NCBI GenBank assembly: GCA_040757695.1
Contig: JBFLWK010000002.1
Span: 10,407-74,406 of the forward strand
Direction: 5' to 3'
DNA length: 64,000 nucleotides
Origin: Elusimicrobiota bacterium
GTDB lineage: Bacteria > Elusimicrobiota > UBA8919
A program made the translations under genes and the position numbers. The notes under the pieces are model-generated. The model was not told where the DNA came from. It searched no databases and saw nothing but the letters and a program-made list of their open reading frames with translations. Positions 8,136-60,715 of this stretch are shown here, one piece after another (position 1 is the stretch's first letter; every line of letters starts with the position of its first letter).

Positions 8136-8184
8136 ATATCACATTAGCGATAATATGAGTATCATATTAGCGACAATGTGATAA
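8136..8184. promoter_or_regulatory. operator-like dyad TATCACATTAGCGATAATATGA / TATCATATTAGCGACAATGTGATA 9 bp upstream of the giant gene start
   Basis: Two ~22-bp half-sites whose outer arms (TATCACAT / ATGTGATA) are mutually reverse-complementary. Confidence 0.35.
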
Positions 8185-8192
8185 TATAAAAA

Positions 8193-23100: not shown

Positions 23101-24557
23101 TCCTATCTGGTTTAACTGCTGGTGATACATATTACTGCCGTGTCTGGCTTGCGGATGAAGTACCGAACTGGTCATCAATTTCAAACGCCGCAACCGCGTG
23201 GGTCCAGGTTGATGTAACACCACCGGCAGAAATTACAGCGTTTTCAGCATCACCAGGTCAAACAGAAGGTAATATCCTGCTCAAATGGACATCGCCAGGC
23301 GACGACGGTACCGTTGGGCAGATAATAGATGGGCAATGGGAGATAAGGTATTCTACCGACTCTAACTTAACCACTTATTCACTTATTCACTTATCCACTT
23401 CTAATGTCGTTCCACTCACTACTCGCTACTCTACAATCACAGGGCTTGAGAGTGGCAAAACATATTATTTTGCATTAAAAACATATGACGAACGAAATAA
23501 TCCATCTGAACTATCAAATACTGCAACATCTTGGGCACAACTTGATATAATAGCACCTTCTAAGATAACTGACCTGTCTGCACTGACTGGCGGAAATACA
23601 GGCGAAATTCAACTTTCATGGACCGCACCCGGTGATGATGGAACAGTCGGTACAGCAAGTTATTATGATATAAGATACTCTACCGTTAGTGCAAATTCAC
23701 CTGCGATATCAATCATAACATTTTATTCTGCTATCCCCTATCCCCTATCCCCTATCCCCTATCCTTCAGGGACACAAGAATCATTAACGCTCACAGGACT
23801 TACACCCGCGGTAACATATTATTTTGCAATAAGAACAGGTGATGAATCATCTGAGTTTAAACAGATAAACTGGTCTCTGATTTCTAACGGTGCTACAACA
23901 TATGCCAAACCGGATATTATCCCGCCTACCACAATAACTACACTTTCAGCACTTACTGGAAGTTCAGTTGATACTGTTAGATTACACTGGATTGCACCTG
24001 GTGATGATGGTACCGTCGGAAATATTACAGGCGGTAAATACGAGATAAAATACTCATCTAACCAGTCGGACACTTGGGCGACTGCACCGTATTCAATCCT
24101 GTTTGATACAAATACTGTAAGCGGAACTGAAGAGTCAAGAATTATTACAGGGCTTACTTCCTCAAATACATATTACTTCTGGATAAAAACAAGAGATGAA
24201 ATCGCTGATAATTGGTCAGATGCATCTGCACAGGTACTCGGAATACGAGCATATTTAAACCTTACAGTTGATAAAACAAAATCGGTTGATTCTGCACTGC
24301 CCGGTGAGACGATAACTTATACAATCACACTCGGAAATACCGGAAGTATTCCGGCAACAGATGTAGTTGTAAAAGATAAGATACCACAGAATTGTGAATA
24401 TCAGTCCGGTAGTATCCGTTTGAATGGTATTAGTAAAACGGATGCTGTTGACGGTGACGAAGCGGATTATAGTTCAGGAATTGTTAATGTTAACCTTGGA
24501 ACAATAAACGCTGGAATAACAGGACAGACAGTAAAATTTGATATTAAAATTCAATAA
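8193..24557 (+). CDS. giant (5454 aa) secreted multi-GH57 alpha-glucan-active surface protein with CBM20/CBM25-like, CBM9-like, many FN3 and Ig-like domains and a C-terminal DUF11 domain
   Basis: Signal peptide LLTCLYAG. GH57 module 1 (~8270-9800): HDHQP, FHHQFFPLL, WPMELAF, LAHDGDNAWGG. GH57 module 2 (~17150-18700): HMHQP, PPENAF, LPHDGDNYGG. Degenerate module 3 (~13000-14600): WTPERV. LHWGVNGW...WDNN (CBM25-like) x2; IFQVDMRD...YKYTYNGANWE (CBM20-like); >20 FN3 repeats (APSAIT-L-A-G--GEI-L-W-APGDDGTVG). Confidence 0.85.
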   Translation: MKKTLKYRLLFLLPSTFYLLTCLYAGSSLHYVNHWHDHQPIYWPNKTRASSANRYEYGNETINNKNNSPYAGHSSVDVFGVFNVDDRKAAYQYRCKDALGTITGYPEAGFTISYTGALAENVKSLGDAYALGYGPDWNNPWKEARAWTTSGGKSRMDILLTGFHHQFFPLLPDDTLARRIIQLYKQGYPEWWGTTPSQSTGFWPMELAFSERMIPTLLSEGVTWTYIANSHISRCMPNWPATPGNGMNTEPPNKADQYNPNGTAGWRNATQDGRPTTNDLREAYRPHYAKYIDPETGTASKIIVVPCGDYEGYIDGYQTFDVGLFDAIAGAQDATRPALVVLAHDGDNAWGGGYDSYMTNTPQKASGASARGYTPSQTSQYLADHPVPVSDIWHVEDGPWVNAAGDFGSPTFSNWNWPWKKDNLPNAPTFDSTAWDDNSQFWAILTAGTNRILTAESYVGTPNMANVLHPDQTTPSNIDLAWHYWLAGFDSGHVYYGTAEDFSWIPIIAMNNAMPYCDAIIGSGEITGADTVPPTVWIPQRFPYNPGSLNYGCAYNYKSFNYPAEFDVYSFVYDASGLSSVKLKYRTATGANTTPIEPDNFIYAGGTAVTSWNEINMSTGTWTVKVMLNGTEQIPAPVTPNYMPVRCWAHVSPGANKLVDYYIEATDKKGNIRKTAIQHCWVGDGSGAGGGGTQLWTPTNPTASDQITIYGSILGKPGKLHWGVNGWTQPSSEYWPSNSTTTVYDAQSVETVMLFDGTSYYITLGPFNKNQAVSELNFVFHWDDGTWDNNGGANWKIAISPVDTTPPASPQRLTATAKNTAIDLSWQANTEPDLAGYNIYQWFVSSYAVLNSQLVTWTTGYTVSQLTNGTTYTFVLTAKDTTGNEAGYSTSVTTSPVATDTFAPQTPTNFSVSGGIEKTILNWTANLETDLYGYRVYRSTYTSSFAQKVFIATVTAPSYSYNDSGLTAGLTYYYQITALDNLYNESSATSEKYGLAQSVPPPSAPTGLVATPGNAEVYLNWNPNTEANLAGYNLYCSSVGVYYKVNTALITGATTYSHTSLTNGVTYYYKLTAVNTVGGESQFSNEVSAIPAALVPVIFQVDMRDIANVTSVNIAGDILTPAWSATANPLTNQSGTLSGIWKVTISLAQNATLKYKYTYNGANWENDFGTAPNNNRQITISPNNANSMYVSNKWNIAGDAIPLVPTGLTATGQLDSKILVKYNANTEWDLHGYNIYTSSYSSTVGYIKSVSTTTSTSYLLSGLENNNTYYVKIEAQDLSGQKSGICGPVSAIAGVDDPPAVVTGLTATAKDSAVELKWSANTESDLAGYYVFWSTNTGGPYSSTSTFISSTTVIYTASPLTNGTAYYFVVRASDTVGNLSTNSLQVTATPSSQPSYEERTIDGSFLDWKFSDVRALDACEDTYNFSDGYDSARDIVALYSREGVNNYYFRVDFHELGLYAENGYLDLYLAIDCATGGQVWLPDYMDCQTDKPWEICIALYNATSASIYKNDWTTVNTAFQGAKFNSQYDSVELAISKSALTAYGWTPGTPIGIQTFSTKDGTNGGTGEIAGASDIVDAIEDDDRGYSDGILNGNTLSTASTGRAKYGFIYHGNQSLNLANDIRGWIYTTYLDHTPTGYRRGLDTIENFGVKGNIHVSGTLASAIQWADTTFNQRIANLTSNGQTAVIGGVLAEHMMPYFEDSGGYNPNSRAIQNGTELLTSIYNLAIQPKVFWTPERVIRGLTFADILTNHDTGQPTGYTATVLDDKYHLRNWFAMPDSQRFKLHKINGVYVFLINGVRADSEAQPGDTNQLTYGYYDPDGAKFWNQDNGMHIGTRKLLLERAQDSDQEQLVLVFDDWEAYAGRSFTSALPNDNADNWDKTIGWVANHQWIETVTLEDILSRGWTPIDHGTNTTLPVVTYDWLMHACENSYDNWYNGTSLEESFLNRIPNVKGTTPLPSNKKYGNLATAGTIIRDTWSDIKLATATQLSTLAGMVYNTLNYETAWHDEDNSDKFSAADTTYDTISGWALYLHGHIRHSSIIAKAAQWANAVSTGGISANTVAQSVDLDSDGELEHLLYNNKVYSVFEKYGGRMIMGFAYQPTVGVGGVQLIGAPATNYDNEGEEESTRHISAFRDENLGIYCNDTYSVSVWTSSITFTSSDGKITKIISLPDNSDTLTANYTQTLGTNLYVKFGLSPNVYDMYFNGKQNLLDISSTTYIGLKNTAGGSVYLALNGGATLNSAYTDGTADNTNAAHTRVFEVYGGANFSVSLTLSGTSAVDSTPPSAITNLVATTGTNDGELNLTWTAPGDDGTVGNNTTDAKYEVKFATYGVVGGNIEGWWTTANTYSQNWPVANCGVTETKTLTGLNRATLYFVGIKTIDDANNKSDITIVASAYTPSDTIPPSAITTLSALTGDNSGEIKLSWLAPGNDGTVGTALGYDIRYSTIASVSPAISTSTFYSAIPYPLSPIPSPSGTQEVFTLTGLLYGTTYYFAIISKDTNNYSALSNGATAVAKPDTSPPDAITTLSALTGSSVGAVQLQWTATGDDGTVGAVVNGKWQVDYSTISNYQFTIDNYKLQITTSYSPLTNHYSLITGLTEGDTYYIRLWATDEVPNWSGLSNAATAQAKVDDIAPAIITDLTGFTGLSDGEVILQWTSPGDDNWSGNLTGQFEIRYSTDPNLSISQSLNLSTSSVAPLSLISYLISDLTEGSTYYFKIRTADDKNNYSQLSGGTTVQVDHTAPAGISNLTALTGTLEGEITLKWTAPGDDGTVGTVSGYLVKYATAPVTTNTFYNATSVGGELIPPLPSGSEQLSTITGLTPSATYYFAIKAQDDKNNWSVWNSSLDVSGVNTSCIAAVQSIIPAAITNLSALSGTETGSIKITWTAPCEDGTYGNAVASYEIRYATYSFDEAEFSQATYLTYPPTPASPGTTQSITIINLTQGAQYYFRIKSKDDANNISPIDTTSPQSNAIATTGGTLPKPPIYIAFQWHMHQPIYYPYETAPQTDDNARYSFSVVHVHNDRTGPYTSWPNMAIQKGVTAGLKHLGAQVSFSGSLSENINNIVAAGRGFWSGWQNDYKTGYNSLTQSETTTPPGAAGPGGNNPRLDLIGFGYHHPLMGLVSYSDVRKQIQLHRQQHSNVFGITSYSKGIFPPENAFRPEMIPALVDEGIQWVIVDNIHFDRTVQGYPWNSGGNLYEPNPSDQINNPSGITWLQLVNLWAPTKVSVPWGYRPHYVQYTNPETGISKKIIAVPGARYEGNEDARGGFGALLYEAVMSQYEAYNTDAQHPMLVVLPHDGDNYGGGTLSYYDSNFQNFVNWLLANPSRFVCTTIQDYLDMFPPDPNDIIHVENGSWSGADNGDPEFLKWNGDPSNGYSPDRNSWGIVTAAKNRLDTAESILPAGSITDILNNTGNNTAKAWHYYYNGQTSCYWYWDGTEIWDSNPARACNLAVSYADQVLGSTPNDIIAPTIYIPQREPYNPGGTEWGVLKPSTFTVWTYIYDLSGLNSVSLKYRVDADGVRDGANDLYSGGTWNSLTMTGTTEPSNTNPQPMYKAQKFSADIIGQSNKLIDYYVEATDTKGNLSKSPIIHVWVGQSTTPGQTTLWQPSNPTKNDIITVNASQTKPGKLHWGVNNWTLPNSAYWPSGTVDYGDGKSVETPLLLSGSSYYIQIGPFNNPIQQVTEINFVFHWDDGSWDNNSGQNWKIPVDNTVISTPTVNITYPANNSSVSGSTVNVTASATDDIGVTRVEFYYKISTDTVWTIISTVTVTPYSTFWNTLSPPLAEDKQYILIAKAYDADGNYGISPEVTVRVNNTNSAPTITVTSPNGSEIWAGSQNITWTTNDTDGDTLLITLQQSTQTAAGTNWINIIVGMNNLGSYVWNTTLVADATNYLIRAIATDPGGLTGLDISDGIFRIRNTDTEAPSAITNLSALPGTYGGQIQLTWTSPGDDGTVGAIQNGEFKIQNSTWTEVIWSTTNAQISISTSVTALSNINYTLAGLTPGDTYYIRIWTADESANYSDISNSATSYANTDTGVTYHPVNVDGTISEWSDLKEKMDTYTGTTFYFTWSSTAIYFSAAGTQPEDFFVFIDTTPNYDTNEGSTTYSNGTWDGLNHKLPFRGNVSVAMEVGAAAYWEMRNYTGAWNSVPYTSAGPTGGIEYSFSGTNSEMAVPLSIIGNPSAIKVVAFAKRESTKAAYKAFPAENTVSDSGDDNLSWYYNFAQLTSGKNPNDAPHINTATQDPSAPCAITNLAATSGDTAPAADDYGKVTLTWTAPPEDGTYGTAVSYYIVRYRTDGAVSDSNWATATDVSGEPVPSAPGTNQTFVVDNLTAGTLYYLAIKSVDDASKTSDLDTSSPRPSAKAGVTYHNINNIDGNISDWSAFSELVDNDNRNGGNKSLYITWSSTAVYFAYGNNKFNDMDLFILIDTHTNYDTAIGTKTPPGDWDGMPQHSLPFYADYSLSIEGSAWKTLDRWNGSAWVNDGNGANIFASSINDATAGGNSEIAVLRSALSNPTQLRIMSVHKWDTAKNVFASFPIENPAPNTDTAVTFTHFYVLNLTDSETPSSAQVVSSNDPTPPSAITTLSALPGDNSGEIKLSWLAPGDDGTIGQIVDGSWEIRYSTVPNLSISQSLNLSTSSVAPLSPISYLLSDLTPGDTYYCQIRAADDVGNWSALSNTATSYAQVAGPPAGSFTPVIDGIKDSQWGGTPNATSVNYKLPADYARDVYVTNDQAYLYIGFQFKGDPWDDTKSAHYNFLIDTQTTQGTATDPWVATTQVSWNNKPDAAVNGWVNGITANSFGGMLRYVSDGTNWDGGTTLFTGIDFSSSKSNDWAEFRLPLNILKVQPGSSINIIHLFRPDETKLGVSDSTPFDSSGCNDYGNANSTISSSFTYTLQGVGDTTAPSAITTLLATQGDTEGMLKLAWASTGDDGISGTIQLGEFRIQYSTWSDVLWSTASAQVIISTSVAPLSPISYLLSGLTAGDTYYCRVWLADEVPNWSSISNAATAWVQVDVTPPAEITAFSASPGQTEGNILLKWTSPGDDGTVGQIIDGQWEIRYSTDSNLTTYSLIHLSTSNVVPLTTRYSTITGLESGKTYYFALKTYDERNNPSELSNTATSWAQLDIIAPSKITDLSALTGGNTGEIQLSWTAPGDDGTVGTASYYDIRYSTVSANSPAISIITFYSAIPYPLSPIPYPSGTQESLTLTGLTPAVTYYFAIRTGDESSEFKQINWSLISNGATTYAKPDIIPPTTITTLSALTGSSVDTVRLHWIAPGDDGTVGNITGGKYEIKYSSNQSDTWATAPYSILFDTNTVSGTEESRIITGLTSSNTYYFWIKTRDEIADNWSDASAQVLGIRAYLNLTVDKTKSVDSALPGETITYTITLGNTGSIPATDVVVKDKIPQNCEYQSGSIRLNGISKTDAVDGDEADYSSGIVNVNLGTINAGITGQTVKFDIKIQ

Positions 24558-24583: not shown

Positions 24584-25570
24584 ATGAAAAAGGTATTGTT
24601 GATAGTAACATTGTTGGTTTTTGGTGTATTAGGGTTCGCGGGTCTTGGAAATGCACATGGGACACAGGCAGGCACGGTTGTCTCAAATGGTGGCGATACA
24701 GGAACTGCCGGAACGGTTGATACAGCAGGTGATACGATTGTGACTTATACAAACGGTCCTGCAAACGGAATCAGTCCAACCGCAGTCACTGTAATTGTAT
24801 CAACAGGTTATGCGATTGCGAATCTTCCAACACCTAATGACCAGACGGTATTGGCAGGCGCTACTGCATATTTTGCATATACCATCTGTAATATCGCGAA
24901 TTCAACTGATACATTTACACTGGCTGCGGCATCTGTTCCTGTAACAGGTCAGCAGGAATGGCTACCAATTATCTATGCGGATGATGGTGCAGGTGGCGGA
25001 ACTGCGAATGATGGTGTCCATCAGAATGGTGAAACGAATACAGTTACCAATACAAGCCAATTTTTTACAAATACATCGTATTACTTTTTTGTAGCGGTTC
25101 CTGTACCATCCACAGCAGTAGATGGCTCTTCAACAACTGTTCGGCTTACTGTTAAGGATAAAAACGGTGACGGCACAGAAGATAACTGGCCAGCCGCTGG
25201 AGATGATACACGCACAGATGATACGATTACTATCTGTTCGGTTGCAGTGCTTACTATTACAAAATCAACAGATGTTGCGTCTGCCAGACCCGGTGAACTT
25301 GTAGAATATACAATTGTTGTAACTAATAACGGCACAGGTGCAGCAAGTAATGTTGTTGTGAAAGACAAGATACCTGCAAATGCAACATTCAATGCGGACA
25401 GTTATGCAGCGGGTTATGGTGTTCAACTTGACGGCGTGAATAAGACGAATGCTAATGATGGTGATGAGGCAGATTACAATGTTACCACTGCGGATGCGAT
25501 TACTGTTAATATCGGCACTATCAATGCAAGTAGCAGTAAGACAGTGAAGTTTAAGGTCCAGATAAATTAA
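24584..25570 (+). CDS. secreted DUF11 (conserved-repeat domain) protein
   Basis: 328 aa; signal peptide; C-terminal LTITKSTDVASARPGELVEYTIVVTNNG...VKDKIP matches the DUF11 pattern and the C-terminus of the giant protein. N-terminal domain paralogous to 25638 ORF. Confidence 0.6.
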   Translation: MKKVLLIVTLLVFGVLGFAGLGNAHGTQAGTVVSNGGDTGTAGTVDTAGDTIVTYTNGPANGISPTAVTVIVSTGYAIANLPTPNDQTVLAGATAYFAYTICNIANSTDTFTLAAASVPVTGQQEWLPIIYADDGAGGGTANDGVHQNGETNTVTNTSQFFTNTSYYFFVAVPVPSTAVDGSSTTVRLTVKDKNGDGTEDNWPAAGDDTRTDDTITICSVAVLTITKSTDVASARPGELVEYTIVVTNNGTGAASNVVVKDKIPANATFNADSYAAGYGVQLDGVNKTNANDGDEADYNVTTADAITVNIGTINASSSKTVKFKVQIN

Positions 25571-25637: not shown

Positions 25638-27833
25638 ATGTATAGGATACCACGCTTATTATCAATAGCCATTTCACTACTCGTTTTACCGGTAATACTC
25701 TATTCTGCTGGTGTAACTCCGGGAACGGTGATTACAAACGGTGGTGATTCAGGAACCATTGGCATGGTTGATACACCCGGCGATACGATTGTAACATGGC
25801 ATTCTTCACCTAATGGTATATCACCATTACCTGTTTCAGTTACCGTTACTACCGGCTATGCTATGATATGGGTTTCAACACCAGCCAGTCAACAGAACCT
25901 GATGCCCGGAGCAACTGTTTATTATCCATATCAGATTAGAAATTATGCAAATGGTTCAGATAGTTTCACAGTTGCAGTTGCAACTATTGCAGGTCAGAAC
26001 TGGCAACACCGAATTTATGCCGACGACAACCAAGACGGCACACATCAAGAAAATGAAACAACTATAAGTTCTACAGGGTTGCTCCTGCCCGATACTACAT
26101 ATTATTTCATAGTTGGGGTTAATGTGTCAACATCTGCAACTTCAGGGCAGACTTCAACATTTCGGCTCACAGTTAAAAACCAGAATGGCCAAGGCACAGA
26201 AGATAACTGGCATTCTGCAGGTAATGATACATTAACTCATGAGATTGTCTCAACTGTAGGGTTACTTCCACCCGCTACACCATCTAATTTCTACGCCACT
26301 TCAGTGACGGTTTCATCAATAACTTGGACCTGGACTGATAACGCAACAAATGAAGACGGCTATCGGTTATCGGTTATCGGTGTTGGGATTCAAGAACTAC
26401 CAGCAAATACAATCTCTACGACAACCACGAACCTCACACCAAACACATCATATTCTGCATATGTAGAAAGTTGGAATATTTCAGGTAGCAGTGCATCTGT
26501 TACCGTCTCAACCTATACACTTGCTAATCCACCGTCAGGAACGCAGATTACGCAGATAACAACAAATACGATTACGCTGATGTGGTCAAACAATAGTAAT
26601 CCGAATTATACGAGTTATGGGGTTTATCGGTCAACCAATGGCAGTTCCTTCTCACTTCTTGATTCTGGCGTCTTTACTTCTTATCTGTCCTCTAACCTCT
26701 CACCTCTAACCTCTTATTGGTATAAGGTTCAGGCAATTAACGAAAATGGTATCGCAACTGCATTTGATATAACGGTTTCTACAAGAACAAAATCGGCTGA
26801 TACTACACCACCGAAACCACCTTGCGGTGTAAGGGGGGAATTAATTGCCGAGCAACTTGCAAAAATTATTTGGTCAGAAGTTACAAAAAATACCGATGGA
26901 ACAACTTGTACCGATTTAGCGAAATATAAAATTTATTATTCTAATATACTGGAAGGGCCTTGGAAAGTGGCAACTGATGTTCCATCATCGTCTACCTTCT
27001 ACCTTCTACCTTCTACCTTTTCATTCAATTATTACAAAATTACTGCAGTTGACACCAGTGACAACGAAAGCGCTGATTCAGTATATATTGACAACACTGC
27101 AGCGCTTTCGGCAGTTACGAAAGAAAATGGTAAAATAGTCGCATTTGTAAAAATTCCACAGGATGTATCAGCTGTGCTCTATAAAGATGGGAAATATACC
27201 GACGATATTGTGATAAATATGCAGAAATTACAGGACGATGATGAACGGGATATCTATGTATATGACTTCCAGCCACAAAAATCAACAACTGGTGAAAAAA
27301 TAGATGATTTCAGGTTTGTTCAGCAGAAAATAGAAATAACATTTTTCTATGATTTGAATAATGATGATTATATTGAAAAAGTAGGCTTGCCAATTTCAGA
27401 AGCAAAAAGCTGGCTTTCTATATTCTATCACAACGGTGTTGAATGGGAAAAACTTGGTGGTGTTGTGAATGCTAATGAGAAATCAATCACAGCAAAAGTT
27501 ACTCATTTGAGTAAGTACAAGTTGAGAAAAACATTAAGAACTATTGGGTTTGGCGATTTACGAATGTATCCGAAAAAGATATTCGCACCATATGAAACAA
27601 ATGATACATATAATAGAATGAAATTCTGTTTTGAAAATGATTCCGAGAAACGAGTAACATTAAGAATATTTGATATTAAAGGTAGAGAGATTTTTAGTGA
27701 CTCAACAACCGATACAGAAATTTATTGGTATGGTAAAGATACCGACGATAAAGTTGTTTCCGGTGGCGTGTATATCTACCAACTTGAATGTGATAAAAAA
27801 GTAATAAACGGCACTGTGGTGGTAGTGAAATGA
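25638..27833 (+). CDS. secreted FN3-containing protein with T9SS-type C-terminal sorting domain
   Basis: 731 aa; N-terminal domain paralogous to 24584 ORF; FN3 repeats; C-terminus ...RIFDIKGREIFSD...GVYIYQLECDKKVINGTVVVVK; stop overlaps next start (ATGA). Confidence 0.7.
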   Translation: MYRIPRLLSIAISLLVLPVILYSAGVTPGTVITNGGDSGTIGMVDTPGDTIVTWHSSPNGISPLPVSVTVTTGYAMIWVSTPASQQNLMPGATVYYPYQIRNYANGSDSFTVAVATIAGQNWQHRIYADDNQDGTHQENETTISSTGLLLPDTTYYFIVGVNVSTSATSGQTSTFRLTVKNQNGQGTEDNWHSAGNDTLTHEIVSTVGLLPPATPSNFYATSVTVSSITWTWTDNATNEDGYRLSVIGVGIQELPANTISTTTTNLTPNTSYSAYVESWNISGSSASVTVSTYTLANPPSGTQITQITTNTITLMWSNNSNPNYTSYGVYRSTNGSSFSLLDSGVFTSYLSSNLSPLTSYWYKVQAINENGIATAFDITVSTRTKSADTTPPKPPCGVRGELIAEQLAKIIWSEVTKNTDGTTCTDLAKYKIYYSNILEGPWKVATDVPSSSTFYLLPSTFSFNYYKITAVDTSDNESADSVYIDNTAALSAVTKENGKIVAFVKIPQDVSAVLYKDGKYTDDIVINMQKLQDDDERDIYVYDFQPQKSTTGEKIDDFRFVQQKIEITFFYDLNNDDYIEKVGLPISEAKSWLSIFYHNGVEWEKLGGVVNANEKSITAKVTHLSKYKLRKTLRTIGFGDLRMYPKKIFAPYETNDTYNRMKFCFENDSEKRVTLRIFDIKGREIFSDSTTDTEIYWYGKDTDDKVVSGGVYIYQLECDKKVINGTVVVVK

Positions 27834-29266
27834 ATATAAACCAGAAGTCAGAAGTCAGAAGTCAGAAGTCAGAAGTCAGAAAATTTTTGCTTCTTTTTTC
27901 TTACTTCTTGCCTCTTGCTTCTTGTCTTTATGGGGCATTTGAAGATACTGGCACTGGTGCACGGCCAATTTCTATCGGCGCATATACTGCAATCGCTGAC
28001 GATGCAAATGCAATTTTTTATAACTCTGCAGGGCTTACAAATGTATTGTATCCTGAACTTTCATCCTGCTATGGCAAACTTTACTGGGGCTTAAACGGGC
28101 CTGATGAGTCTGCTCTATCTGATACATCTGTTGGGTTTGTCTATCCATCACATTTCGGCACATTTGGACTCGGCTGGCTCAATTTCGGGCTATCAGGTTA
28201 TTATTCTGAAAATACGATTCTGTTGTCATATGGAAGAGATGTTATTGAAAGAATATCTCTCGGAACTACACTGAAATATCTTACAAGAAAATACGGACAG
28301 GATATTTATACAATCAATTATGATATGTTTAAGAAAAATGGCTATTTACAAAACACGGTCAGCGGTGATATTTCAATTTTGTACAATTCTGCAAATTTGA
28401 GTTTTGCAGTTGTTGTAAAAGATGTTAATCAACCCGATGTAGGTCTCGGCAATAAAGATATTGTTCCACTACTCGTTAAATTTGCTACCGCATATAAAAT
28501 CAAAAACCTGAATCTCGGGCTTGAAACATTTTACAAAGATAAAAAATACGGAGTTATACTTGGTGGCGAAAAACTATTTGGTGAGTTTGCACTCAGGTCA
28601 GGTTTTGAATTCGGAACTGATGAATTACGGAATCTTAATCTCGGTTTCGGTTATAAGTTTGCAGAAAGATTCTTGATTGATTATGCAGTTTCGTATCCAT
28701 TTTCAGGTTTGAAAGAAATATACGGTACACATCGGCTATCTATCGGACTTAAATTTGGACCTCAGCCTAAAGACGAACTCTCAGAAGCTAAAAAAGAAAT
28801 TGACCGACTGACTGACGAAATCTTAAAACTTGAAGAATCAATACAAAAAGTTCAAGCCGAAAATATCAAACTTAAAGAGTCAAAAATAGCGCCCGAGAAA
28901 GAACCACAACAAGAACCGCAACAAACAGAAAAAATAGAAGTTGAACTTGATAAGAAAAAAATTATGAAACAATACTACGATAAAGGGCTGGATTATTATC
29001 AGAAAGGTGAATACAGAAATGCAATAGCCGAATTTAACGAAATCCTGAAATTCCAGCCAGACCATCAACAATCAATTCGGTTAATAAAACAATCAAAACT
29101 AAAAATAGAAGAATTAACCGCGGAACTTTATTACAAAGGGCTCAAAGAGTACACTAAAGGTAATGTAAAACAGGCAATATCTTATTGGCAGAAAGCACTT
29201 GAAATTGATACAGAAAATGATAAAATAAAGAATGCGTTAGAAAAAGCAAAAACAGAAATACGCTGA
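27830..29266 (+). CDS. PorV/PorQ-family-like outer-membrane beta-barrel with C-terminal coiled-coil and tandem TPR-like tail
   Basis: N-terminal GARPISIGAYTAIADDANAIFYNSAGL (PorV/PorQ-like signature as I recall it); C-terminal EYRNAIAEFNEILKFQPDH and VKQAISYWQKALEIDTEN; 5' region (CAGAAGT)x4. Confidence 0.5.
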   Translation: MNINQKSEVRSQKSEVRKFLLLFSYFLPLASCLYGAFEDTGTGARPISIGAYTAIADDANAIFYNSAGLTNVLYPELSSCYGKLYWGLNGPDESALSDTSVGFVYPSHFGTFGLGWLNFGLSGYYSENTILLSYGRDVIERISLGTTLKYLTRKYGQDIYTINYDMFKKNGYLQNTVSGDISILYNSANLSFAVVVKDVNQPDVGLGNKDIVPLLVKFATAYKIKNLNLGLETFYKDKKYGVILGGEKLFGEFALRSGFEFGTDELRNLNLGFGYKFAERFLIDYAVSYPFSGLKEIYGTHRLSIGLKFGPQPKDELSEAKKEIDRLTDEILKLEESIQKVQAENIKLKESKIAPEKEPQQEPQQTEKIEVELDKKKIMKQYYDKGLDYYQKGEYRNAIAEFNEILKFQPDHQQSIRLIKQSKLKIEELTAELYYKGLKEYTKGNVKQAISYWQKALEIDTENDKIKNALEKAKTEIR

Positions 29267-29279: not shown

Positions 29280-29440
29280 ACAACGCGGATTCCCGCTGAT
29301 TTGTCATTCCCGAATGCCCCTGTCGGGAATCCTTGTTTTCACGTGGACAGGTTCTACTCCTTTAATGGATTCCCAATAGAACCATTTGGGAATGACACCT
29401 CCGATAGAGTCATTCGGGGGCAGATTTTGTGTCATCTGCG
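29280..29440. repeat. GTCATTCCCGA / TCGGGAATGACA dispersed hairpin-repeat cluster
   Basis: Several attcccg-N-cgggaat hairpins; related copies at 2400-2520, 7770-7900, 35430-35540, 36490-36600. Confidence 0.6.
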
Positions 29441-29448
29441 ATTCTTAT

Positions 29449-30873
29449 ATGCGAATCAAGACAAAATTCTCTATTTTTGCGGTTTTACTTATAGTTGTCT
29501 GCGTCATTGCAGTCAGTTATTCTATTTTTCTGATAGAAAAAAAACTGCTTGTTGAAAACCAGAACCAGGAACTAACAAAAACGATTTCGCAGTTTTCTGC
29601 AGTTGCCAGAGAGGCAATAATTGCAAAAGATGATTTGCTGGCACTGAATTATTTGAAGGCATTAAAAAAAACAGCACTCGGGTTTGAAAATGGCTATCTT
29701 ATAAATAAATTAGGCACAATTATCGCAACAACCAATGCGGATTTGCTAAGAAAAAAGAAACTGCCTGATAAAAAAGATAATTCTATAAGAATCAGTAATG
29801 ATGTTATATCAGGCAATAAAAAAATTGGATTTGTTTGTATTGATTTCTCTGCAGAAGTACTAAAAAAATTGACTGATGAAAATATAAAAAAAATCGGATT
29901 TCAGGTTCTGCTCACTTCATTGCTTGTTCTGGTTTTTGGAATAATAATTTCGGTTATGTTTGCAGCAAAATTATCAAAACCTGTAAAAAAACTGGTAACC
30001 GAAGTTCGCGCTATCGCAGATGGTAATTTAGAGACCAAAGCAGATGTTCTGACAAAAGATGAAATAGGCGATTTGGCAAATGAATTTAATAAAATGGCTG
30101 TATCACTAAAGTATCTGGACCATCTAAAATCGGATTTTATCTCTAATGTATCACATGAACTGCGGTCTCCACTGGCTGCAATAGAGAGTTATATCAATCT
30201 TATGCTTGAAGATAAAGAAGAACTTAACTACGAAAATCTTGCAAAAATAAAAAATAATACTGCACGATTATCAAAATTTATTGACGACCTTTTAGATGTT
30301 TCTAAAATTGAACAGAAGGGTGGGGAAATATCCGAAAAAAAAGTGGTAAAATTAAATACTGTTGTTGAAGATGTTGTCTCGCTTTTTAAAGTGCAGACAG
30401 AAGATAAAAACCTAAAATTAGAAAATAAATTACCAGAAAAGTTGCCTGATGTTATCGCGAATAGTGAACGACTTAAACAGGTTTTTATCAATCTTATTTC
30501 AAATGCAATAAAGTTCACACAGGAAGGCGGAAAAATACAGATAGAAGCAAGAGGCAAGAGGCAAGAGGCAAGTAAAGGCAAAGAAGTTGATTCTACTGGC
30601 ATCTTGCATCTTGCATCCTGCATCGAAGTTGCAGTGGCAGATACCGGTATCGGTATCCCCAGTGACCAGTTAGCAAAAATTTTTGATAAGTTCCATCAGG
30701 TAAAAGGAACCGTAGATGAACTAAAAGGACCTAAAGGAACAGGGCTTGGACTCTCAATTGTTAAAGGAATAATTGAAGAGCATAATGGAAAAGTATGGGT
30801 AGAGAGCGAATTAAATAAAGGCACAACATTCTATTTTACACTACCTGTAAACCCAAATAACGGCACCGAATAG
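29449..30873 (+). CDS. sensor histidine kinase (2 TM helices, periplasmic domain, HAMP, HisKA, HATPase_c)
   Basis: H-box SHELRSPLAAI; N-box LISNAIKFT; G-boxes DTGIGI and GTGLGLSIV. In-frame (GCAAGAG)x3 / (CATCTTG)x2 insert in the ATP-binding domain. Confidence 0.8.
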   Translation: MRIKTKFSIFAVLLIVVCVIAVSYSIFLIEKKLLVENQNQELTKTISQFSAVAREAIIAKDDLLALNYLKALKKTALGFENGYLINKLGTIIATTNADLLRKKKLPDKKDNSIRISNDVISGNKKIGFVCIDFSAEVLKKLTDENIKKIGFQVLLTSLLVLVFGIIISVMFAAKLSKPVKKLVTEVRAIADGNLETKADVLTKDEIGDLANEFNKMAVSLKYLDHLKSDFISNVSHELRSPLAAIESYINLMLEDKEELNYENLAKIKNNTARLSKFIDDLLDVSKIEQKGGEISEKKVVKLNTVVEDVVSLFKVQTEDKNLKLENKLPEKLPDVIANSERLKQVFINLISNAIKFTQEGGKIQIEARGKRQEASKGKEVDSTGILHLASCIEVAVADTGIGIPSDQLAKIFDKFHQVKGTVDELKGPKGTGLGLSIVKGIIEEHNGKVWVESELNKGTTFYFTLPVNPNNGTE

Positions 30874-30952: not shown

Positions 30953-31342
30953 ATGAAAAAGATATTAGTTATTGACGATGAAAAAGATTTCAGAGACCTT
31001 GTAGAAAAAATATGTTCTAAGGAGTTTGAAGTTGTAAGTGTTGGTGATGCTGAGGAAGGTTTTAAGATTATCAAAAAAAATCTGACTGACTTGCTATTGC
31101 TTGATATAAATCTGCCTAGGGTTGGTGGCTATACGCTCTGTCAGCGAATCCGTGCGGATGAACAATTAAAAAAATTGCCAATAATAATGCTGACGGTAAG
31201 GCGCCGAAAAGAAGACCAACTAAAAGGGCTTGAACTTGGTGCAGATGATTATATCACAAAACCGTTTGAGCCGAAAGAGTTAATCGCACGGATAAAAACT
31301 GTTCTTGCCCGCTGTAAGAACCCGAATAAATGCACCGAATAA
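30953..31342 (+). CDS. single-domain response regulator (CheY-like receiver)
   Basis: 129 aa; DD...D...K receiver pattern (VIDDEKD, LLLDINLP, ADDYITKPF). Confidence 0.8.
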   Translation: MKKILVIDDEKDFRDLVEKICSKEFEVVSVGDAEEGFKIIKKNLTDLLLLDINLPRVGGYTLCQRIRADEQLKKLPIIMLTVRRRKEDQLKGLELGADDYITKPFEPKELIARIKTVLARCKNPNKCTE

Positions 31343-31419: not shown

Positions 31420-32112
31420 ATGAAAGAAAAAATACTGGTTGTTGACGATGATAAAGAAATTTTAGAACTTGTGAAAGATACTTTAGAGATTTCCGGGTTT
31501 TCTGTTATTACAGCAAGAGGTGCGGATAGTGCAATGGAAAAAATTGAAGCGGTCAGCCCGGCACTTGTGATTCTGGATTTGATGCTGCCAGGTATAAACG
31601 GATTTGAACTCACACGGATTCTTAAAAAAGATAACAAAACAAAAAATATACCGATTATCCTGATGTCTGCAAAATTTACAGATACACAATCAATAGTTAC
31701 AGGGCTTTCATCAGGTGCGGATGATTATATTGCAAAACCGTTTGATATTGATGTACTAATAGCGAGAGTAAAAGCGATTTTGAGACGGACAAGCGGAGGG
31801 GGGTATAGATATGAAGAACAGGAGTTTATCTCGTCAAAAAATATAAAAGTGAACCTGAAAAGTAAAACGGTTTATATGCGTGAAAAAGAAGTGAAGTTAA
31901 CACCGAAAGAATACGAACTGCTGGTCTATCTGATGAAAAAAAACGGTGCAGCATTAGACAGAAATACGATACTTCAAGCGGTCTGGGATTACAGTTATTT
32001 CGGGACAACACGAACCGTAGATGTCCATATTCAGCAATTGAGAAAAAAATTGAACGATGACGGGAAAATAATACAAACAATCAGCAAAACCGGCTATAAG
32101 TTTGAAGATTAA
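31420..32112 (+). CDS. OmpR-family response regulator (receiver + winged-helix Trans_reg_C)
   Basis: 230 aa; receiver VVDDDKE...LDLMLPG...ADDYIAKPF; C-terminal LTPKEYELLVYLMKKNGAALDRNTIL...TRTVDVHIQQLRKKL. Confidence 0.85.
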   Translation: MKEKILVVDDDKEILELVKDTLEISGFSVITARGADSAMEKIEAVSPALVILDLMLPGINGFELTRILKKDNKTKNIPIILMSAKFTDTQSIVTGLSSGADDYIAKPFDIDVLIARVKAILRRTSGGGYRYEEQEFISSKNIKVNLKSKTVYMREKEVKLTPKEYELLVYLMKKNGAALDRNTILQAVWDYSYFGTTRTVDVHIQQLRKKLNDDGKIIQTISKTGYKFED

Positions 32113-32193
32113 CGGAGGAAGCCAATGAAAAAATTGCAGATTGCAGATTGCAGATTGCAGATTGGTAGAAATTGGAACTGGAATTGGAAACGG

Positions 32194-32991
32194 ATGTCAT
32201 TGCGAGCGTTAGCGTGGCAATCTCGGTTTTGGGTTTTACTTTTTACCTTTCTACCTTTCCACCTTTCTACCTGCCTTTATGGACAGGATATGAAAGTGAA
32301 ACTGAACTCCGCAGACGGTTCTACCAGTTTCCAGGTGCGGGATTCTGCCGATGTTGTTGTAAGTTCCATAACATCCGACGGTAATATTCATACAAAATAT
32401 GGTGTAAAAGCAGCAACAGAATCAATTACAGGATTGTCAAGCGTATCAAGGAGTTCTGTGACATATGAGATTGTTGCAGCAAGCGCTTCCTTCACTGCAA
32501 CAGGAACTTACTCTATCATAACCAGTTCAGGGATAAGTCTCCCCGCAGGTGGCTTAAAGGACTTAACAGTAAAAAATGAAGATTTAATCATCACCTCAAC
32601 TTTTGTCTATGTTGCTAATACGAGTGGACTTGCTGAGCGTACGTGGACTGATACTGTGCCATTTTATGGAACACTGAACATAACGCAACAACCTGCTATG
32701 ATATATGCAGTTTTCACTACGAGTTGCTGCCGTACAGATAGTGGTTACCCAAAATTTGAATGGCAAATACTTGGAAATGGTTGCGGTCTTTCTTGGAACG
32801 TTATGGGTTATAGTGGAGGACAGTTACAGGCAGCAAATTATACTGGTTGGTCTTGGCTTGTGACTTGCGTCGGCGTGAAAAGGGTCACGCAGACGGGAAC
32901 CCTCACTGTGAAGGTACAGGACCAGCACTGGGGAAATATGAATCTCTCTGAATCAAATTTCTCTGCATTCTGGTTCCCATGTGGCCCGTAG
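32194..32991 (+). CDS. secreted hypothetical protein (Cys-rich C-terminus)
   Basis: ATG at 32194 lies inside a GTCATTGCGAGCG repeat; signal peptide ends HLSTCLYGQD. The 32125 start would add a (GCAGATT)x4 repeat-encoded leader. Confidence 0.45.
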   Translation: MSLRALAWQSRFWVLLFTFLPFHLSTCLYGQDMKVKLNSADGSTSFQVRDSADVVVSSITSDGNIHTKYGVKAATESITGLSSVSRSSVTYEIVAASASFTATGTYSIITSSGISLPAGGLKDLTVKNEDLIITSTFVYVANTSGLAERTWTDTVPFYGTLNITQQPAMIYAVFTTSCCRTDSGYPKFEWQILGNGCGLSWNVMGYSGGQLQAANYTGWSWLVTCVGVKRVTQTGTLTVKVQDQHWGNMNLSESNFSAFWFPCGP

Positions 32992-33350: not shown

Positions 33351-35396
33351 ATGCACACCTATATAACTACTAGATGGAAAGATGGAAAGATGGAAAGATG
33401 GTTAGGTAATAGATTTTCCTTTCTATCTTTCTATTTTTCTATCTTTCTATCTCTCTATCTTTCTACCTGCCTTTATGCAACTGCATCTGCACCGAAAGTG
33501 GTTGAGGATGGTGTACTGTTCACATTTGACGCAAAGAATGCACATAAAGTATATTTAGCCGGCTCTTTTAAGAAAGATAATGATGGGAATTCAGTGGTTA
33601 ATTTCAGCGAACTTGTAACGGTAACTAAAAAACGGCTCTTGGTTGAAGGTCGGATTCTAAAACCGTTAATTGTTGAAAAAATCAAAAAAAATTTGGATAG
33701 CATTTATATAAAAAAAATAGTCCTGCATAAAATCTGGATAAAACCAAATGAAGAAACGAAAGTTACTGTAGATATAGAAAATATAGAGAGTAAAAAAAAA
33801 GATACTACACTTGTGTTTTATGTTAAAAAGTTTGACAACCAAGTATTAGCACAAAAAGAAACAAAAAAAATAGAGAAATCTATAACATTTGAAATCCAAA
33901 CAAAAAGTTACAGTGAAGACGGTTATATTTTTGAGTTTGAATTAAAAGAAAAAGAAAAAGTTATAGATAGAGAATATGAAGTTATTTCAATAGTAAAAAA
34001 TATTTCTGATGATTTAAGATACGGCTTCTATGCAAACTGGGATAAAATCGGCGCTGACTACAAGAAGAAAACCGACTATTTTGCACAACTGCATATCAAT
34101 GCGATTGAGTATTACGATTATTTTCCAGCACACGGTTATTACGCACCTAAAGAAAAAATGTATAAATCTGAGCCATTCGGTATAACGATTTTAGCCGACG
34201 ATATTCAGCAAAAAATTGATTCTGCACGAGACCGAAATATCCTGTCTGTTGCATATGTTGCTGCATATTCGGCTTCTAAATCTATTTATGAAAAATACCC
34301 GTATCCAATGACTGATGAAAAAGGCAACCCGAAAGTTTTTAATGGTAGTATCACAACAGAACTTGACGCCAAAAACCAAAACAAGGATATCTGGTTTTAT
34401 CTGATGGCAATCGCACAGGATACTAAATGGTATTCTTACATTATGGAACAGTTCAGAAAAACGATGGATAATTCTGCTGATGATTTGGTTTCATTTGATG
34501 GTTTTGAGATTGATTCTTACGGTCATTCCAAAAACGAACGATACTATAGTGCAAGTAGTAAATATAATGGTGAACTGTTGAGCACAATTATTATGACTTT
34601 TGTGAATGCTGTTCGTAAAATAGCACATAAAATTAAACCTGATTCTGTTGTATCGTTTAATTGTGTCAACGAATACGGTATAGAGCAAATGTGTAATATA
34701 GTGGATTTCCTATTCATAGAGAATTGGGCGGGTTATAAAAGCGGCTTAGAAGATTTAGTTGATATCTGCTATAAAAACCGTGTGGCTAAAAATCAGCGGG
34801 TAGTAATCAAACTCTATCCAGCGGATACTGTGGGCAGTCCAAAAATATTCTCAAAAGAATGTCTGAAATACTTACTCGGTGCTGCAATGACCGGCGGCGG
34901 CTCCGTTATGGTTGCCGGCGAGCCTGACGAACAAAACAACCGAATGCATGCGTTGAATACGCTTTATTATCCTGATAATGTCGCAATGCCCGACGACAAT
35001 TTTGGTATCTTAAAAAATTATTATACTTTTGATACACTGCTATACAGAATCACACACGGCAAAAATGTGAATAACCTGAAGTCAGATTTTGAACTACCGG
35101 ATTGTATTACAAGAGAATTTTTATCAAATAGATATATCGTGGTAAGTATTTTGCATAACGGCAACAACAGTGAATGGAATCAAAAAGTTGCCACACCGAA
35201 TACATTAGAAAACTACGAAATTGCTTATACTCTGCCTAAAAACAAAAAACCAGTCGCGGTCTATTATGGAACGCCGGATTACGAGGAATTACTAATACCT
35301 AAATCATTAGATTGGGAGTTAAAAGACGGATATATTCGGACACTACTGCCGAAACTTGAAACTTACGGTGTTTTAATAATAGAAACAATACAATGA
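33351..35396 (+). CDS. lipoprotein with putative TIM-barrel glycoside-hydrolase-like C-terminal domain (family uncertain; GH66/GH114-like suspected)
   Basis: 681 aa; repeat-built signal peptide ending YLSTCLYATASA; C-terminal FAQLHINAIEYYDYFPAHGYY. Sits next to ABC sugar transporter genes. Confidence 0.45.
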   Translation: MHTYITTRWKDGKMERWLGNRFSFLSFYFSIFLSLYLSTCLYATASAPKVVEDGVLFTFDAKNAHKVYLAGSFKKDNDGNSVVNFSELVTVTKKRLLVEGRILKPLIVEKIKKNLDSIYIKKIVLHKIWIKPNEETKVTVDIENIESKKKDTTLVFYVKKFDNQVLAQKETKKIEKSITFEIQTKSYSEDGYIFEFELKEKEKVIDREYEVISIVKNISDDLRYGFYANWDKIGADYKKKTDYFAQLHINAIEYYDYFPAHGYYAPKEKMYKSEPFGITILADDIQQKIDSARDRNILSVAYVAAYSASKSIYEKYPYPMTDEKGNPKVFNGSITTELDAKNQNKDIWFYLMAIAQDTKWYSYIMEQFRKTMDNSADDLVSFDGFEIDSYGHSKNERYYSASSKYNGELLSTIIMTFVNAVRKIAHKIKPDSVVSFNCVNEYGIEQMCNIVDFLFIENWAGYKSGLEDLVDICYKNRVAKNQRVVIKLYPADTVGSPKIFSKECLKYLLGAAMTGGGSVMVAGEPDEQNNRMHALNTLYYPDNVAMPDDNFGILKNYYTFDTLLYRITHGKNVNNLKSDFELPDCITREFLSNRYIVVSILHNGNNSEWNQKVATPNTLENYEIAYTLPKNKKPVAVYYGTPDYEELLIPKSLDWELKDGYIRTLLPKLETYGVLIIETIQ

Positions 35397-38959: not shown

Positions 38960-39582
38960 GTAGACGGCAATTAATTGCCGTCTACGGAAGGAGATAAATA
39001 TATGGGCAAAATTCACAGGTTTTTGGAAAAAGGTGCGGTTCATTTTGTAACAACTAATACTATAAATCGTGTGAAAATTTTTAATGATGAAGTTTCTGCA
39101 AGATTTCTGTTATTATGTATTGGGTATCATAAGTTTATGCTTAATTTTTACCTTCTGGGATATGTGATTATGCCAGACCATTTACATATGTTGTTGCAGA
39201 TTTTAAGCGAGAAATATAATCTATCTGTTATTATGAAGCAAATCAAAGGCAATTTTGCCCGTAAATACAACGAATGGTATCAAAAAAACCAACCCACAGG
39301 TAGTCGGCGTTTAAACGCCGACTACCTGAAATGGGATTATAGAGGGTTTTCATACAAACCTGTATGGCAGGAAAGTTTTTATGACACTGCATTACGAGAC
39401 CCAAAACAAGTTCGTGAAAAAATAGAATATATGCATTGGAATCCCGTCAAAGCAGGGATTGTTGACCACCCTAAAGATTATGAATTTTCAAGTTATCACC
39501 AGTATTACGGTGAAAAAAGATTATGGATACAAATCCCTATAGAAAAATTTATAATTTAATACGGCATTTAATTGCCGTCTAC
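38960..39582 (+). mobile_element. RAYT family-1 cassette: REP palindrome - RAYT gene - REP
   Basis: 5' GTAGACGGCAATTAATTGCCGTCTAC (38960-38985), 3' ACGGCATTTAATTGCCGTCTAC (39561-39582); same architecture as 62614-63222. Confidence 0.7.
39002..39559 (+). CDS. REP-associated tyrosine transposase (RAYT; IS200-like Y1 HuH transposase, COG1943-like)
   Basis: HuH motif PDHLHMLL; C-terminal YMHWNPVKAGIVDHPKDYEFSSY. SD GGAAGGAG upstream of ATG 39002; ~80% identical to 62656-63210. Contains an internal perfect 28-nt palindrome at 39299-39326. Confidence 0.75.
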   Translation: MGKIHRFLEKGAVHFVTTNTINRVKIFNDEVSARFLLLCIGYHKFMLNFYLLGYVIMPDHLHMLLQILSEKYNLSVIMKQIKGNFARKYNEWYQKNQPTGSRRLNADYLKWDYRGFSYKPVWQESFYDTALRDPKQVREKIEYMHWNPVKAGIVDHPKDYEFSSYHQYYGEKRLWIQIPIEKFII

Positions 39583-48526: not shown

Positions 48527-48571
48527 CTTACACCCGACTTTAGTCGGAGAAAACAAACCCACTAAAGTGGG
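48461..48571. repeat. REP family-2 cluster (CCCGACTTTAGTCGG, ACCCGACTTCAGTTGG, ACCCGACTTTAGTCGG, CCCACTAAAGTGGG)
   Basis: Mirrors the upstream cluster 47812-47940. Confidence 0.75.
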
Positions 48572-50215: not shown

Positions 50216-50329
50216 CTAAAAATGGACAGAAAAAATTATTATCACAGATTAACACAGAAATGTCATTCTGAACGAAGCGTTAGCGGAGTGAAGAATCTCG
50301 GGATTCTTCCCCGCCTCAGGCGGGTCAGA

Positions 50330-60657: not shown

Positions 60658-60715
60658 ATCACGAATAACACCCGAATGAAAAATATTGATATTCGGGAGA
60701 TATTTGGGAGGAATT

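Follow-up and report, generated by a model that had tools for sequence, protein, structure and literature searches.

The window analyzed here is a 64-kb stretch of Elusimicrobiota metagenome-assembled genome (MAG) DNA with a G+C content of 39.8%, and its main subject is the gene at 27830-29266, which encodes a protein consisting of a PorV-like outer-membrane beta-barrel followed by a C-terminal tail with units of the tetratricopeptide repeat (TPR) type. Barrels and repeat units were sought in the six-frame open reading frames (ORFs), and a barrel hidden Markov model (HMM) built from relatives found exactly four barrels in the window (6399-7646, 27830-29266, 53117-54157 and 56537-58054, hereafter referred to by their first coordinates). 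Their C-terminal extensions, measured on an alignment of 47 sequences (A1), amount to 106, 166, 0 and 172 aa in that order. Three of the four barrels are thus tailed, as the initial annotation of this DNA had reported, and its estimate of 80–150 aa for the tails holds for the shortest of them and is slightly exceeded by the other two. The interval 28790-29266, singled out in that annotation, falls within the tail of the 27830 ORF, in which the barrel occupies approximately aa 36–312 and the tail aa 313–478 (nt 28766-29263). The predicted protein is 100% identical to the NCBI entry AB1349_00545 (Elusimicrobiota bacterium), where it is named a hypothetical protein.

The description of the barrels as PorV-like is borne out by several lines of comparison. 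With a barrel-only profile (A2) searched against PDB sequences, Flavobacterium johnsoniae PorV (6H3I_F) is the sole significant match with an E of 2.5e-18, and TodX and CymD are marginal (E of 0.013 and 0.044). The NCBIfam model PorV_fam (NF033709, cut-off 90 bits) gives 172.6 bits for 53117, 90.0 bits for 6399, which is equal to the cut-off, 42.1 bits for 27830 and 31.1 bits for 56537. The individual PorQ, PorV and PorP/SprF models match the window barrels more weakly than PorV_fam, with the PorQ model at 66 bits for the 6399 ORF. The PorP/SprF cut-offs are not reached, either for TIGR03519 (17.3 bits for 27830 and 19.8 bits for 6399, cut-off 90.55) or for PF11751 (16 bits for 6399, cut-off 22.3). 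AlphaFold2 (AF2) places 14 strands after short plug helices in both proteins that were modelled, spanning aa 76–308 in 27830 (plug helices at aa 44–71) and aa 79–330 in 56537 (overall predicted local distance difference test score, pLDDT, of 81.5), and the top structural matches in Foldseek are the 14-stranded channels FadL, TbuX and TodX. Pfam matches of the relatives are spread over UPF0164 (24 of 47 relatives; cut-off 21.4 bits), Toluene_X, PorP_SprF (PF11751; 12 of 47 and 18 of 80 relatives, best E 4.8e-14) and PorV; we take UPF0164 to have been built around Treponema pallidum paralogs. Because the family models, the PorV match in the PDB, the AF2 strands, the Foldseek matches and the Pfam matches of relatives all bear on the same branch, the barrels are placed in the PorV/PorQ/PorP branch of the FadL-like superfamily, with no clean fit to one curated family. 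Membership in FadL proper was rejected since the scores for the FadL/TodX family (PF03349) of 12.3 and 16.3 bits are far under its cut-off of 29.7, although the likeness at the level of the fold is real. The tail-less 53117 barrel ends in a ...GGRF beta-signal, and the tailed barrels carry the equivalent motif internally.

Each tail consists of a spacer, which is a heptad coiled coil in 27830, a Pro-rich stretch in 56537 and (TDAEIERE)x3 in 6399, followed by one or two three-helix units of approximately 47 aa. In the 27830 protein the heptad register covers residues 317–348 with hydrophobic residues at 8 of 10 a/d positions, and the ortholog P0004 shows the same spacer layout. The spacer of 6399 is encoded by a 24-nt tandem array of 3.5 copies detected by Tandem Repeats Finder (TRF). 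The end of the 27830 tail is modelled as five helices (aa 362–477, pLDDT 90–97), and 56537 shows the same five-helix layout at aa 392–504 (pLDDT 93–98) after a low-confidence Pro-rich stretch at aa 331–391, with the two proteins sharing 27% identity over their full length including the tail. The tails are therefore folded and not disordered, as the helical tail domains reach a pLDDT of 90–98 in two independent models and only the Pro-rich linker of 56537 is of low confidence, apart from the short linker of 27830 listed in Table 1.

The units are true TPR-type units. Each comprises a TPR hairpin and a third, capping helix, which in two-unit tails continues into helix A of the next unit, and it is this third helix after each TPR that gives the unit its period of ~47–60 aa. 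The Pfam TPR_2 model (PF07719, cut-off 27 bits) scores 38.0 bits for the 27830 tail, 41.8 bits for the 56537 tail and 26.2 bits for the 6399 tail, short of the cut-off by 0.8 bits, and profile A1 matches consensus-TPR structures. A 47-aa unit HMM made here from 19 units scores the five units of the window at 36–72 bits and elsewhere in the six-frame ORFs gives only a 10-bit match, in a small unrelated TPR ORF ending at 1024; the strict form of the signature motif proposed in the initial annotation is likewise found only in barrel tails within the window. All peptides quoted in that annotation were found in the translations, and the signature is indeed present in the paralog tails. It corresponds to TPR consensus positions 17–34 (A20, F/W24, L28, P32), the fuller unit consensus adding G8, Y11 and the capping helix, so it is a generic structural consensus that says nothing about a common ligand. 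The fact that the consensus of 227 units taken from barrel proteins is identical to that of 138 non-barrel units means that the signature reflects the fold and not a shared specific ligand, and a barrel-specific ligand signature was rejected on this ground. We are highly confident in this structural description of the barrel-plus-tail proteins.

Relatives of the barrels and their cargo genes

We examined the best 80 species-level loci drawn from 404 confirmed relatives, with one genome per GTDB species. These loci span Elusimicrobiota, Firestonebacteria, FCPU426, Goldiibacteriota, Eiseniibacteriota, Zixiibacteriota and Gemmatimonadota and also include several MAGs labelled 'Clostridia' or merely 'bacterium'. 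The label 'Clostridia bacterium' (L008, L010, L011, L013, L014, L016, L019, L052, L054 and L087) does not sit well with a diderm envelope, and these barrel-bearing genomes have probably been assigned to the wrong taxon.

The position of the tail is occupied in relatives by 1–20 TPR units, OmpA_C, LysM, CarboxypepD_reg with OmpA (P0072), HHH_3, Phosphonate-bd, or nothing at all, about half of the relatives being tail-less. Among the best 80 loci, 30 carry 1–7 units at a spacing of ~47–60 aa, six have OmpA_C at the tail position and five have a Phosphonate-bd domain, which is like a substrate-binding protein (SBP), fused to the barrel. TPR, the carboxypeptidase-regulatory domain (CRD) and OmpA_C are three of the four domains of PorE, a separate lipoprotein of Bacteroidota whose fourth domain is a beta-propeller. 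Other domains fused to barrels of relatives are fn3, FlgD_ig and a transglutaminase-like domain; barrel ORFs of 644–757 aa with such extra domains, in a list that does not single out the Phosphonate-bd carriers, occur in L059, L060, L064, L069, L073 and L074, and further relatives with extra fused domains are P0370, P0373, P0383, P0388, P0397 and P0419.

A search with the tail alone against 1.84 billion representative proteins gave 12,996 matches at E <= 1e-3. Among the best 148 of these, 32 are proteins with an N-terminal PorV-like barrel followed by 5–20 units, and the others are either non-barrel proteins with the same unit of ~50 aa, many of which have signal peptides, or ordinary TPR proteins with 34-aa repeats. 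Tail-bearing relatives are also found in Zixibacteria and Krumholzibacteriota, where the NCBI name is just 'PorV/PorQ family protein'. The fusion of barrel and TPR is common among these lineages, and as a module the unit is generic, being found on non-barrel proteins as well. It was therefore an overstatement to call outer-membrane barrels with TPR tails unusual, given these counts and a T. pallidum precedent published in 2021.

In two loci of one species, a 670-aa protein with beta-propeller-like repeats and OmpA_C is encoded directly after a barrel-TPR gene with seven units (L003 4437-6449; L009 5950-7974). By analogy, this protein resembles PorE without its TPR part, as if the TPR had moved onto the barrel, and it is a single case. 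The order of genes further downstream in L003 and L009 (GGDEF, SBP, permeases) partly matches the window at 58107-62598, where a second GGDEF gene stands in the place of the SBP.

Every barrel in the window (4/4) directly follows a gene for a protein of 707–949 aa, the last ~90 residues of which resemble type IX secretion system (T9SS) sorting domains. A non-iterative HMM of this C-terminal domain (CTD), made from the four CTDs of the window, detects 86 of the 1,285 ORF C-termini in the 80 loci, and 55 of these lie immediately upstream of a barrel; the same HMM detects none of 655 opposite-strand ORFs. Pairing of a barrel with an upstream CTD protein is thus seen in 55 of the 80 loci. The similarity between barrels and the similarity between CTDs are correlated (Spearman 0.77, a value attained by 0 of 2000 permutations), and for 26 of 58 pairs the top CTD match is the cargo of the closest relative of the barrel. 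In the window, the two most alike CTDs (25638 and 54432) precede 27830 and 56537, the tailed barrels that can be aligned over their full length. The upstream pairing and the correlation of barrel and CTD similarity support the view that barrel and CTD cargo are cognate pairs. Two of the barrels also appear to be translationally coupled to their cargo genes, judging from the ATGA stop/start overlaps between the cargo and the 27830 barrel and between the cargo and the 56537 barrel (ATG at 56552).

The candidate cargo proteins are related to one another and to known sorting domains to different degrees. The C-terminal ~180 aa of the 25638 cargo are common to the 54432 cargo, which is homologous to it over its C-terminal half, and to the cargo upstream in L003. 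The CHU_C scores of these two window proteins (22.6 and 21.7 bits, cut-off 27) are a sub-threshold sign of type B, and there are weak type A matches too: the CTD of the 3484 cargo scores 17.4 bits for Por_Secre_tail and 19.3 bits for TIGR04183, both sub-threshold. In the 50222 cargo, the C-terminal 110 aa match the PorU model and, at a significant E of 1.4e-11, the CTD region of the PorZ model, and searches of Pfam and the PDB gave nothing for its N-terminal 830 aa. The cargo gene of the 27830 barrel is preceded by a giant 5,454-aa fn3 + DUF11 protein (8193-24557) and a 328-aa DUF11 protein (24584-25570). The near-identical N-terminal ~100 aa are shared by the 328-aa protein and the 731-aa cargo, and among these three proteins only the 731-aa cargo has the barrel-pairing CTD.

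Table 1. Barrel genes of the window, their parts, candidate cargo genes and tandem arrays (nt, window coordinates).
Feature	Coordinates	Strand	Evidence and remarks
Barrel-plus-tail protein, 478 aa	27830-29266	+	Main subject; ORF; AF2 pLDDT 88, predicted template modelling score (pTM) 0.79
Signal peptide, aa 1-35 (cleavage between ...CLYG and AFED)	27830-27934	+	Read from sequence; cleavage site placed by eye
14-stranded PorV/PorQ/PorP-type beta-barrel with N-terminal helical plug, aa 36-312	27935-28765	+	Barrel HMM 333 bits; AF2
Coiled-coil spacer helix, aa 313-350	28766-28879	+	AF2: one 38-residue helix straight after strand 14
Short E/P/Q-rich linker, aa 351-361	28880-28912	+	Low confidence, pLDDT block ~62
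TPR-plus-capping-helix unit 1, aa 378-423	28961-29098	+	Unit HMM 71 bits; TPR_2 aa 382-412; AF2 pLDDT 90-96
TPR-plus-capping-helix unit 2, aa 430-475	29117-29254	+	Unit HMM 59 bits; AF2 helices aa 413-442, 446-459, 464-477
Cargo candidate of 27830, 731 aa, fn3 + T9SS-like CTD	25638-27833 (CTD 27555-27830)	+	Pfam fn3; CHU_C 22.6; CTD HMM
Barrel-plus-tail paralog, 415 aa	6399-7646	+	Likely start ATG at 6402 (start codon context)
Tail of 6399: (TDAEIERE)x3; one unit	7331-7415; 7485-7625		Unit HMM 71.6 bits
Cargo candidate of 6399, 949 aa, beta-propeller repeats, PKD, CRD, CTD	3484-6333 (CTD 6031-6330)	+	Pfam SBBP, Big_9, PKD; CTD HMM
Tail-less PorV/PorQ-family barrel, 346 aa	53117-54157	+	PorV_fam 172.6 bits; UPF0164 34 bits
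Cargo candidate of the tail-less barrel, 943 aa, CTD	50222-53053 (CTD 52751-53050)	+	CTD HMM
Barrel-plus-tail paralog, 505 aa from TTG	56537-58054	+	Likely start ATG at 56552
Tail of 56537: Pro-rich linker; two units	57536-57709; 57728-57868, 57896-58036		Unit HMM 62, 36 bits
Cargo candidate of 56537, 707 aa, fn3 + CTD	54432-56555 (CTD 56295-56552)	+	Pfam fn3; CHU_C 21.7; CTD HMM
Tandem arrays	27842-27924; 53135-53241; 56560-56642; 54443-54491; 48727-48810		
Further tandem arrays	33372-33465; 37512-37612; 32133-32272; 8225-8256; 30543-30624		

Possible roles of the tail

An outer-membrane barrel with an even number of strands has both of its termini in the periplasm, so the C-terminal tail is expected to be periplasmic. 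With this in mind, the reading that we favor, at what we would call even chances, is that the barrels are cargo-specific surface anchors like PorP/SprF in which a fused tether would do in cis what PorE does in trans. Each barrel would be a cargo-specific member of the PorV/PorQ/PorP superfamily, paired with the CTD-ended exported protein encoded upstream, and by analogy with PorP/SprF-like carriers it would bind the CTD of the cargo at the cell surface and keep the cargo there. The spacer, whether coiled coil, Pro-rich stretch or acidic repeat, would reach away from the membrane, and the one or two three-helix TPR units would serve as a protein-protein docking module. The tail would then most likely tether the barrel-cargo complex to a periplasmic partner, or via that partner to the cell wall, which is the job that the separate lipoprotein PorE is taken to perform for PorP in Bacteroidota. 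For this tether function, taken by itself, we see the arguments as evenly balanced.

The combination of a variable spacer with a binding module, and the replacement of that module by OmpA_C or LysM in relatives, points to a link between barrel and periplasm or cell wall. It had been suggested in the initial annotation that the tail could dock the cognate cargo or a periplasmic partner, and such docking is plausible; the presence of OmpA_C or LysM in place of TPR favors a periplasmic or cell-wall partner over the cargo. In Bacteroidota, PorP binds type B CTD cargo on the outside and PorE on the inside, PorE bridges to peptidoglycan, and 6 of 10 porP-like genes of F. johnsoniae adjoin porE-like genes (PMC9143113). 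Genes for type B cargo are linked to those of their cognate carriers, which are specific for the neighboring cargo (PMC12618676), and SprF is coupled through its C-tail to the GldK track in the periplasm (PMC12635249).

Several observations weigh against this tether reading. The tail unit is generic and also stands on non-barrel proteins, and the two longest-tailed barrels are far under the PorV_fam cut-off (42 and 31 vs. 90 bits) and the PorP_fam cut-off (17 vs. 90.55). Against the curated models of type A and type B, the cargo CTDs stay under threshold, and the co-variation of barrels and CTDs could be mere co-inheritance of adjacent genes. No partner was found for the TPR units, no OmpA-like gene adjoins the barrels within the window, and the separate PorE-like neighbor occurs in one species only among the 80 loci. 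The PorE model itself (NF052230, cut-off 600 bits) gives only one match, of 13.3 bits, between the 6399 tail and the TPR region of the model, so that it is the repertoire of tail domains across the family that resembles PorE, and by functional analogy alone. In the literature searched we found no paper that links T9SS to Elusimicrobia and nothing relevant on PorV-TPR fusions.

The reported confinement of T9SS to Bacteroidota or the FCB group, together with the lack of any paper linking it to Elusimicrobia in the literature searched, speaks for a different arrangement, in which the proteins are exporters like Slam: the TPR would take hold of the neighboring cargo, or of its CTD, ahead of export, and the barrel, alone or with the beta-barrel assembly machinery (BAM), would bring the cargo to the surface with no canonical T9SS. 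Slam combines a periplasmic TPR with a 14-stranded barrel and adjoins its cargo genes (PMC5449769), the coupling of barrel and cargo genes is strict here, and two of the tails give weak matches to TPR_Slam (19.7 and 21.9 bits). We nevertheless consider this arrangement doubtful. The TPR_Slam scores are under the cut-off of 35.2 bits, the barrel is PorV-like and not DUF560, and the order of domains is reversed, the TPR being C-terminal here; membership in the Slam/DUF560 family proper was rejected on the same three grounds, there being no DUF560 match. One of the four pairs in the window and about half of the relatives are tail-less, and the TPR therefore cannot be essential for cargo handling. 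It is also replaced in relatives by OmpA_C or LysM, which bind peptidoglycan and not cargo, and there is no known precedent for the passage of a cargo of up to several thousand residues through a plugged 14-strand barrel. A related and more far-reaching idea, which we think somewhat less likely again, applies if Elusimicrobiota and neighboring candidate phyla lack the T9SS translocon and motor: the PorV-like barrels could then be self-contained, cargo-specific export-and-anchor devices, with the CTD of the adjacent protein received by the periplasmic TPR array and the cargo brought to the surface and kept there by the barrel, possibly helped by BAM. If true, this would be a Slam-like or two-partner-like system on a PorV fold, perhaps one that is simpler than the carrier arm of type IX secretion and either related or ancestral to it.

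The structural likeness to FadL, TbuX and TodX, the matches of relatives to Toluene_X and UPF0164, and the Phosphonate-bd domain fused to the barrel in 5 of 80 relatives are what would be expected if the proteins took up nutrients as FadL-like importers, with the TPR tail docking periplasmic binding proteins or transporters. In both the window and L003, barrels do have genes for ABC-transporter binding proteins and permeases nearby, and uptake, with the TPR docking binding proteins, has been suggested for the T. pallidum proteins (PMC8407342). We rate this as improbable, since the sequence match is strong to PorV (E 2.5e-18) and marginal to TodX and CymD, the ABC genes are not consistently adjacent, and the conserved, co-varying pairing with CTD-bearing surface proteins would be left unexplained.

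Slightly more remote still is a role of the tail in assembly or oligomerization, as a built-in pilotin or BamD-type module that recruits BAM or self-associates the barrels into an array and is not a wall tether. The heptad coiled coil could oligomerize, the arrays of up to 20 units in relatives are more scaffold-like than a simple tether, and the tails show weak NCBIfam likeness to BamD/YfiO, PilW, Tgl and the N-terminus of the secretin Amuc_1098, all of them outer-membrane-associated TPR modules. These four matches are all far under their cut-offs, however, the linkers of the paralogs are Pro-rich or acidic and not coiled coil, and tail-less paralogs and relatives evidently assemble. Finally, that the tails are non-functional low-complexity extensions derived from repeats, as might be imagined in a window rich in short tandem DNA repeats where the 6399 linker is itself such an array, is scarcely credible and was excluded as an artefact, given the two high-confidence helical models, the conservation of the units in dozens of species and between paralogs that are 27% identical overall, and the fact that the tail units are not tandem DNA repeats.

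The large, unstudied set of fusions that occur naturally in Elusimicrobiota, Firestonebacteria, FCPU426, Zixibacteria and Krumholzibacteriota, with a TPR, OmpA_C, LysM or CRD module at the C-terminus of the carrier barrel, acts as a 'Rosetta stone' for the periplasmic connection of such barrels, a connection that for PorP/SprF in Bacteroidota (through PorE, or by a disulfide to the GldK/PorK track) is only now becoming clear. These fusions lend support to the idea that tethering to the cell wall or periplasm is a general need of cargo-carrying barrels, and they point to the TPR part as the barrel-proximal adaptor. If the T9SS core is absent in these organisms, the pairs of barrel and cargo would constitute a new minimal surface-display system.

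Neighboring genes and tandem repeats

Downstream of the 27830 barrel lie a HAMP histidine kinase (29386-30873) and two response regulators (30953-31342 and 31420-32112), and in L004 the gene directly after the related barrel P0013 again encodes a HAMP histidine kinase (7826-9187). The presence of such a kinase next to both barrels hints at a conserved regulatory linkage.

The signal peptide of the 27830 protein is encoded by two heptamer tandem arrays detected by TRF, (CAGAAGT)x5.7 and (TTGCTTC)x5.4, at 27842-27881 and 27887-27924. Dozens of short tandem arrays with units of 7 or 8 nt in 4–8 copies each occur in the window (examples in Table 1), often paired side by side at the 5' ends of exported-protein genes, where they encode the charged and hydrophobic parts of signal peptides; two arrays fall within the HATPase region of the histidine kinase ORF. 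Since array units of 7 or 8 nt do not amount to whole codons, the gain or loss of copies would cause a frameshift, and the arrays could mediate slipped-strand phase variation. Three IS200/Y1-type transposase-like ORFs are present (38975-39559, 47954-48526 and 62656-63210), one of which scores 73.9 bits for the REP-associated tyrosine transposase model (cut-off 80), and a 36-nt tandem repeat of 2.6 copies (48456-48547) overlaps the 3' end of one of them. The 33351 ORF has no match in the PDB sequence search.

Comparison with known systems

One of the closest known systems is the PorP/SprF and PorE arrangement in the type B CTD pathway of the Bacteroidota T9SS. As in the window, a 14-stranded barrel is encoded there beside its own CTD cargo, and the barrel is linked in the periplasm to the TPR/CRD/OmpA_C anchor PorE, or by its C-tail in the case of SprF and GldK. 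The differences are that the TPR is located on a separate lipoprotein in Bacteroidota whereas it is fused to the C-terminus of the barrel here (with OmpA_C, LysM or CRD in relatives), that there is no twin-cysteine tail here, that the window barrels are far under the PorP family cut-off, and that the host is a member of the Elusimicrobiota, for which our literature search gave no report of T9SS. PorV/PorQ provides the closest sequence relative with a solved structure (6H3I_F), and PorV_fam matches every barrel of the window, with two scores that equal or exceed the cut-off. PorV differs in being a single, general carrier of type A CTDs with no periplasmic domain, whereas the window has one barrel per cargo, with three of the four barrels tailed.

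Slam (type XI secretion, DUF560) shares with the present proteins a periplasmic TPR and a 14-stranded barrel in one polypeptide and a gene located beside a surface-displayed cargo, but its TPR is N-terminal, its barrel is of the DUF560 type and its cargo is a lipoprotein, and TPR_Slam is sub-threshold here. Two-domain OmpA-type proteins likewise have an internal beta-signal and consist of a barrel joined through a linker to an anchoring domain in the periplasm, and six of the 80 relatives carry OmpA_C; OmpA differs in having an 8-stranded barrel and no cargo partner, and in the window the periplasmic domain is TPR and not a peptidoglycan binder.

A precedent for the architecture itself is found in T. 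pallidum, where TP0548, TP0859 and TP0865 are described as a 14-stranded barrel followed by a presumed periplasmic C-terminal three-helix bundle with one TPR, and where the authors reported no other FadL members with such a domain (PMC8407342). Going by this published description, these FadL-like proteins share their unit architecture with the 6399 ORF, which has a single unit. They differ in that they have short linkers and one bundle, are read as importers and have no reported adjacent CTD cargo, and no Treponema protein is among the best 120 matches of profile A6. The authors found no such proteins elsewhere, whereas the family described here has hundreds, so the C-terminal TPR bundle reported to be unique to these T. 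pallidum vaccine candidates belongs to a widespread architecture. The barrel-TPR bundle was therefore already known from T. pallidum, and what is added here is that the architecture is widespread, that the tail position is modular and that the barrels are paired with CTD cargo. The design is a variant of known systems and not a new kind of machine.

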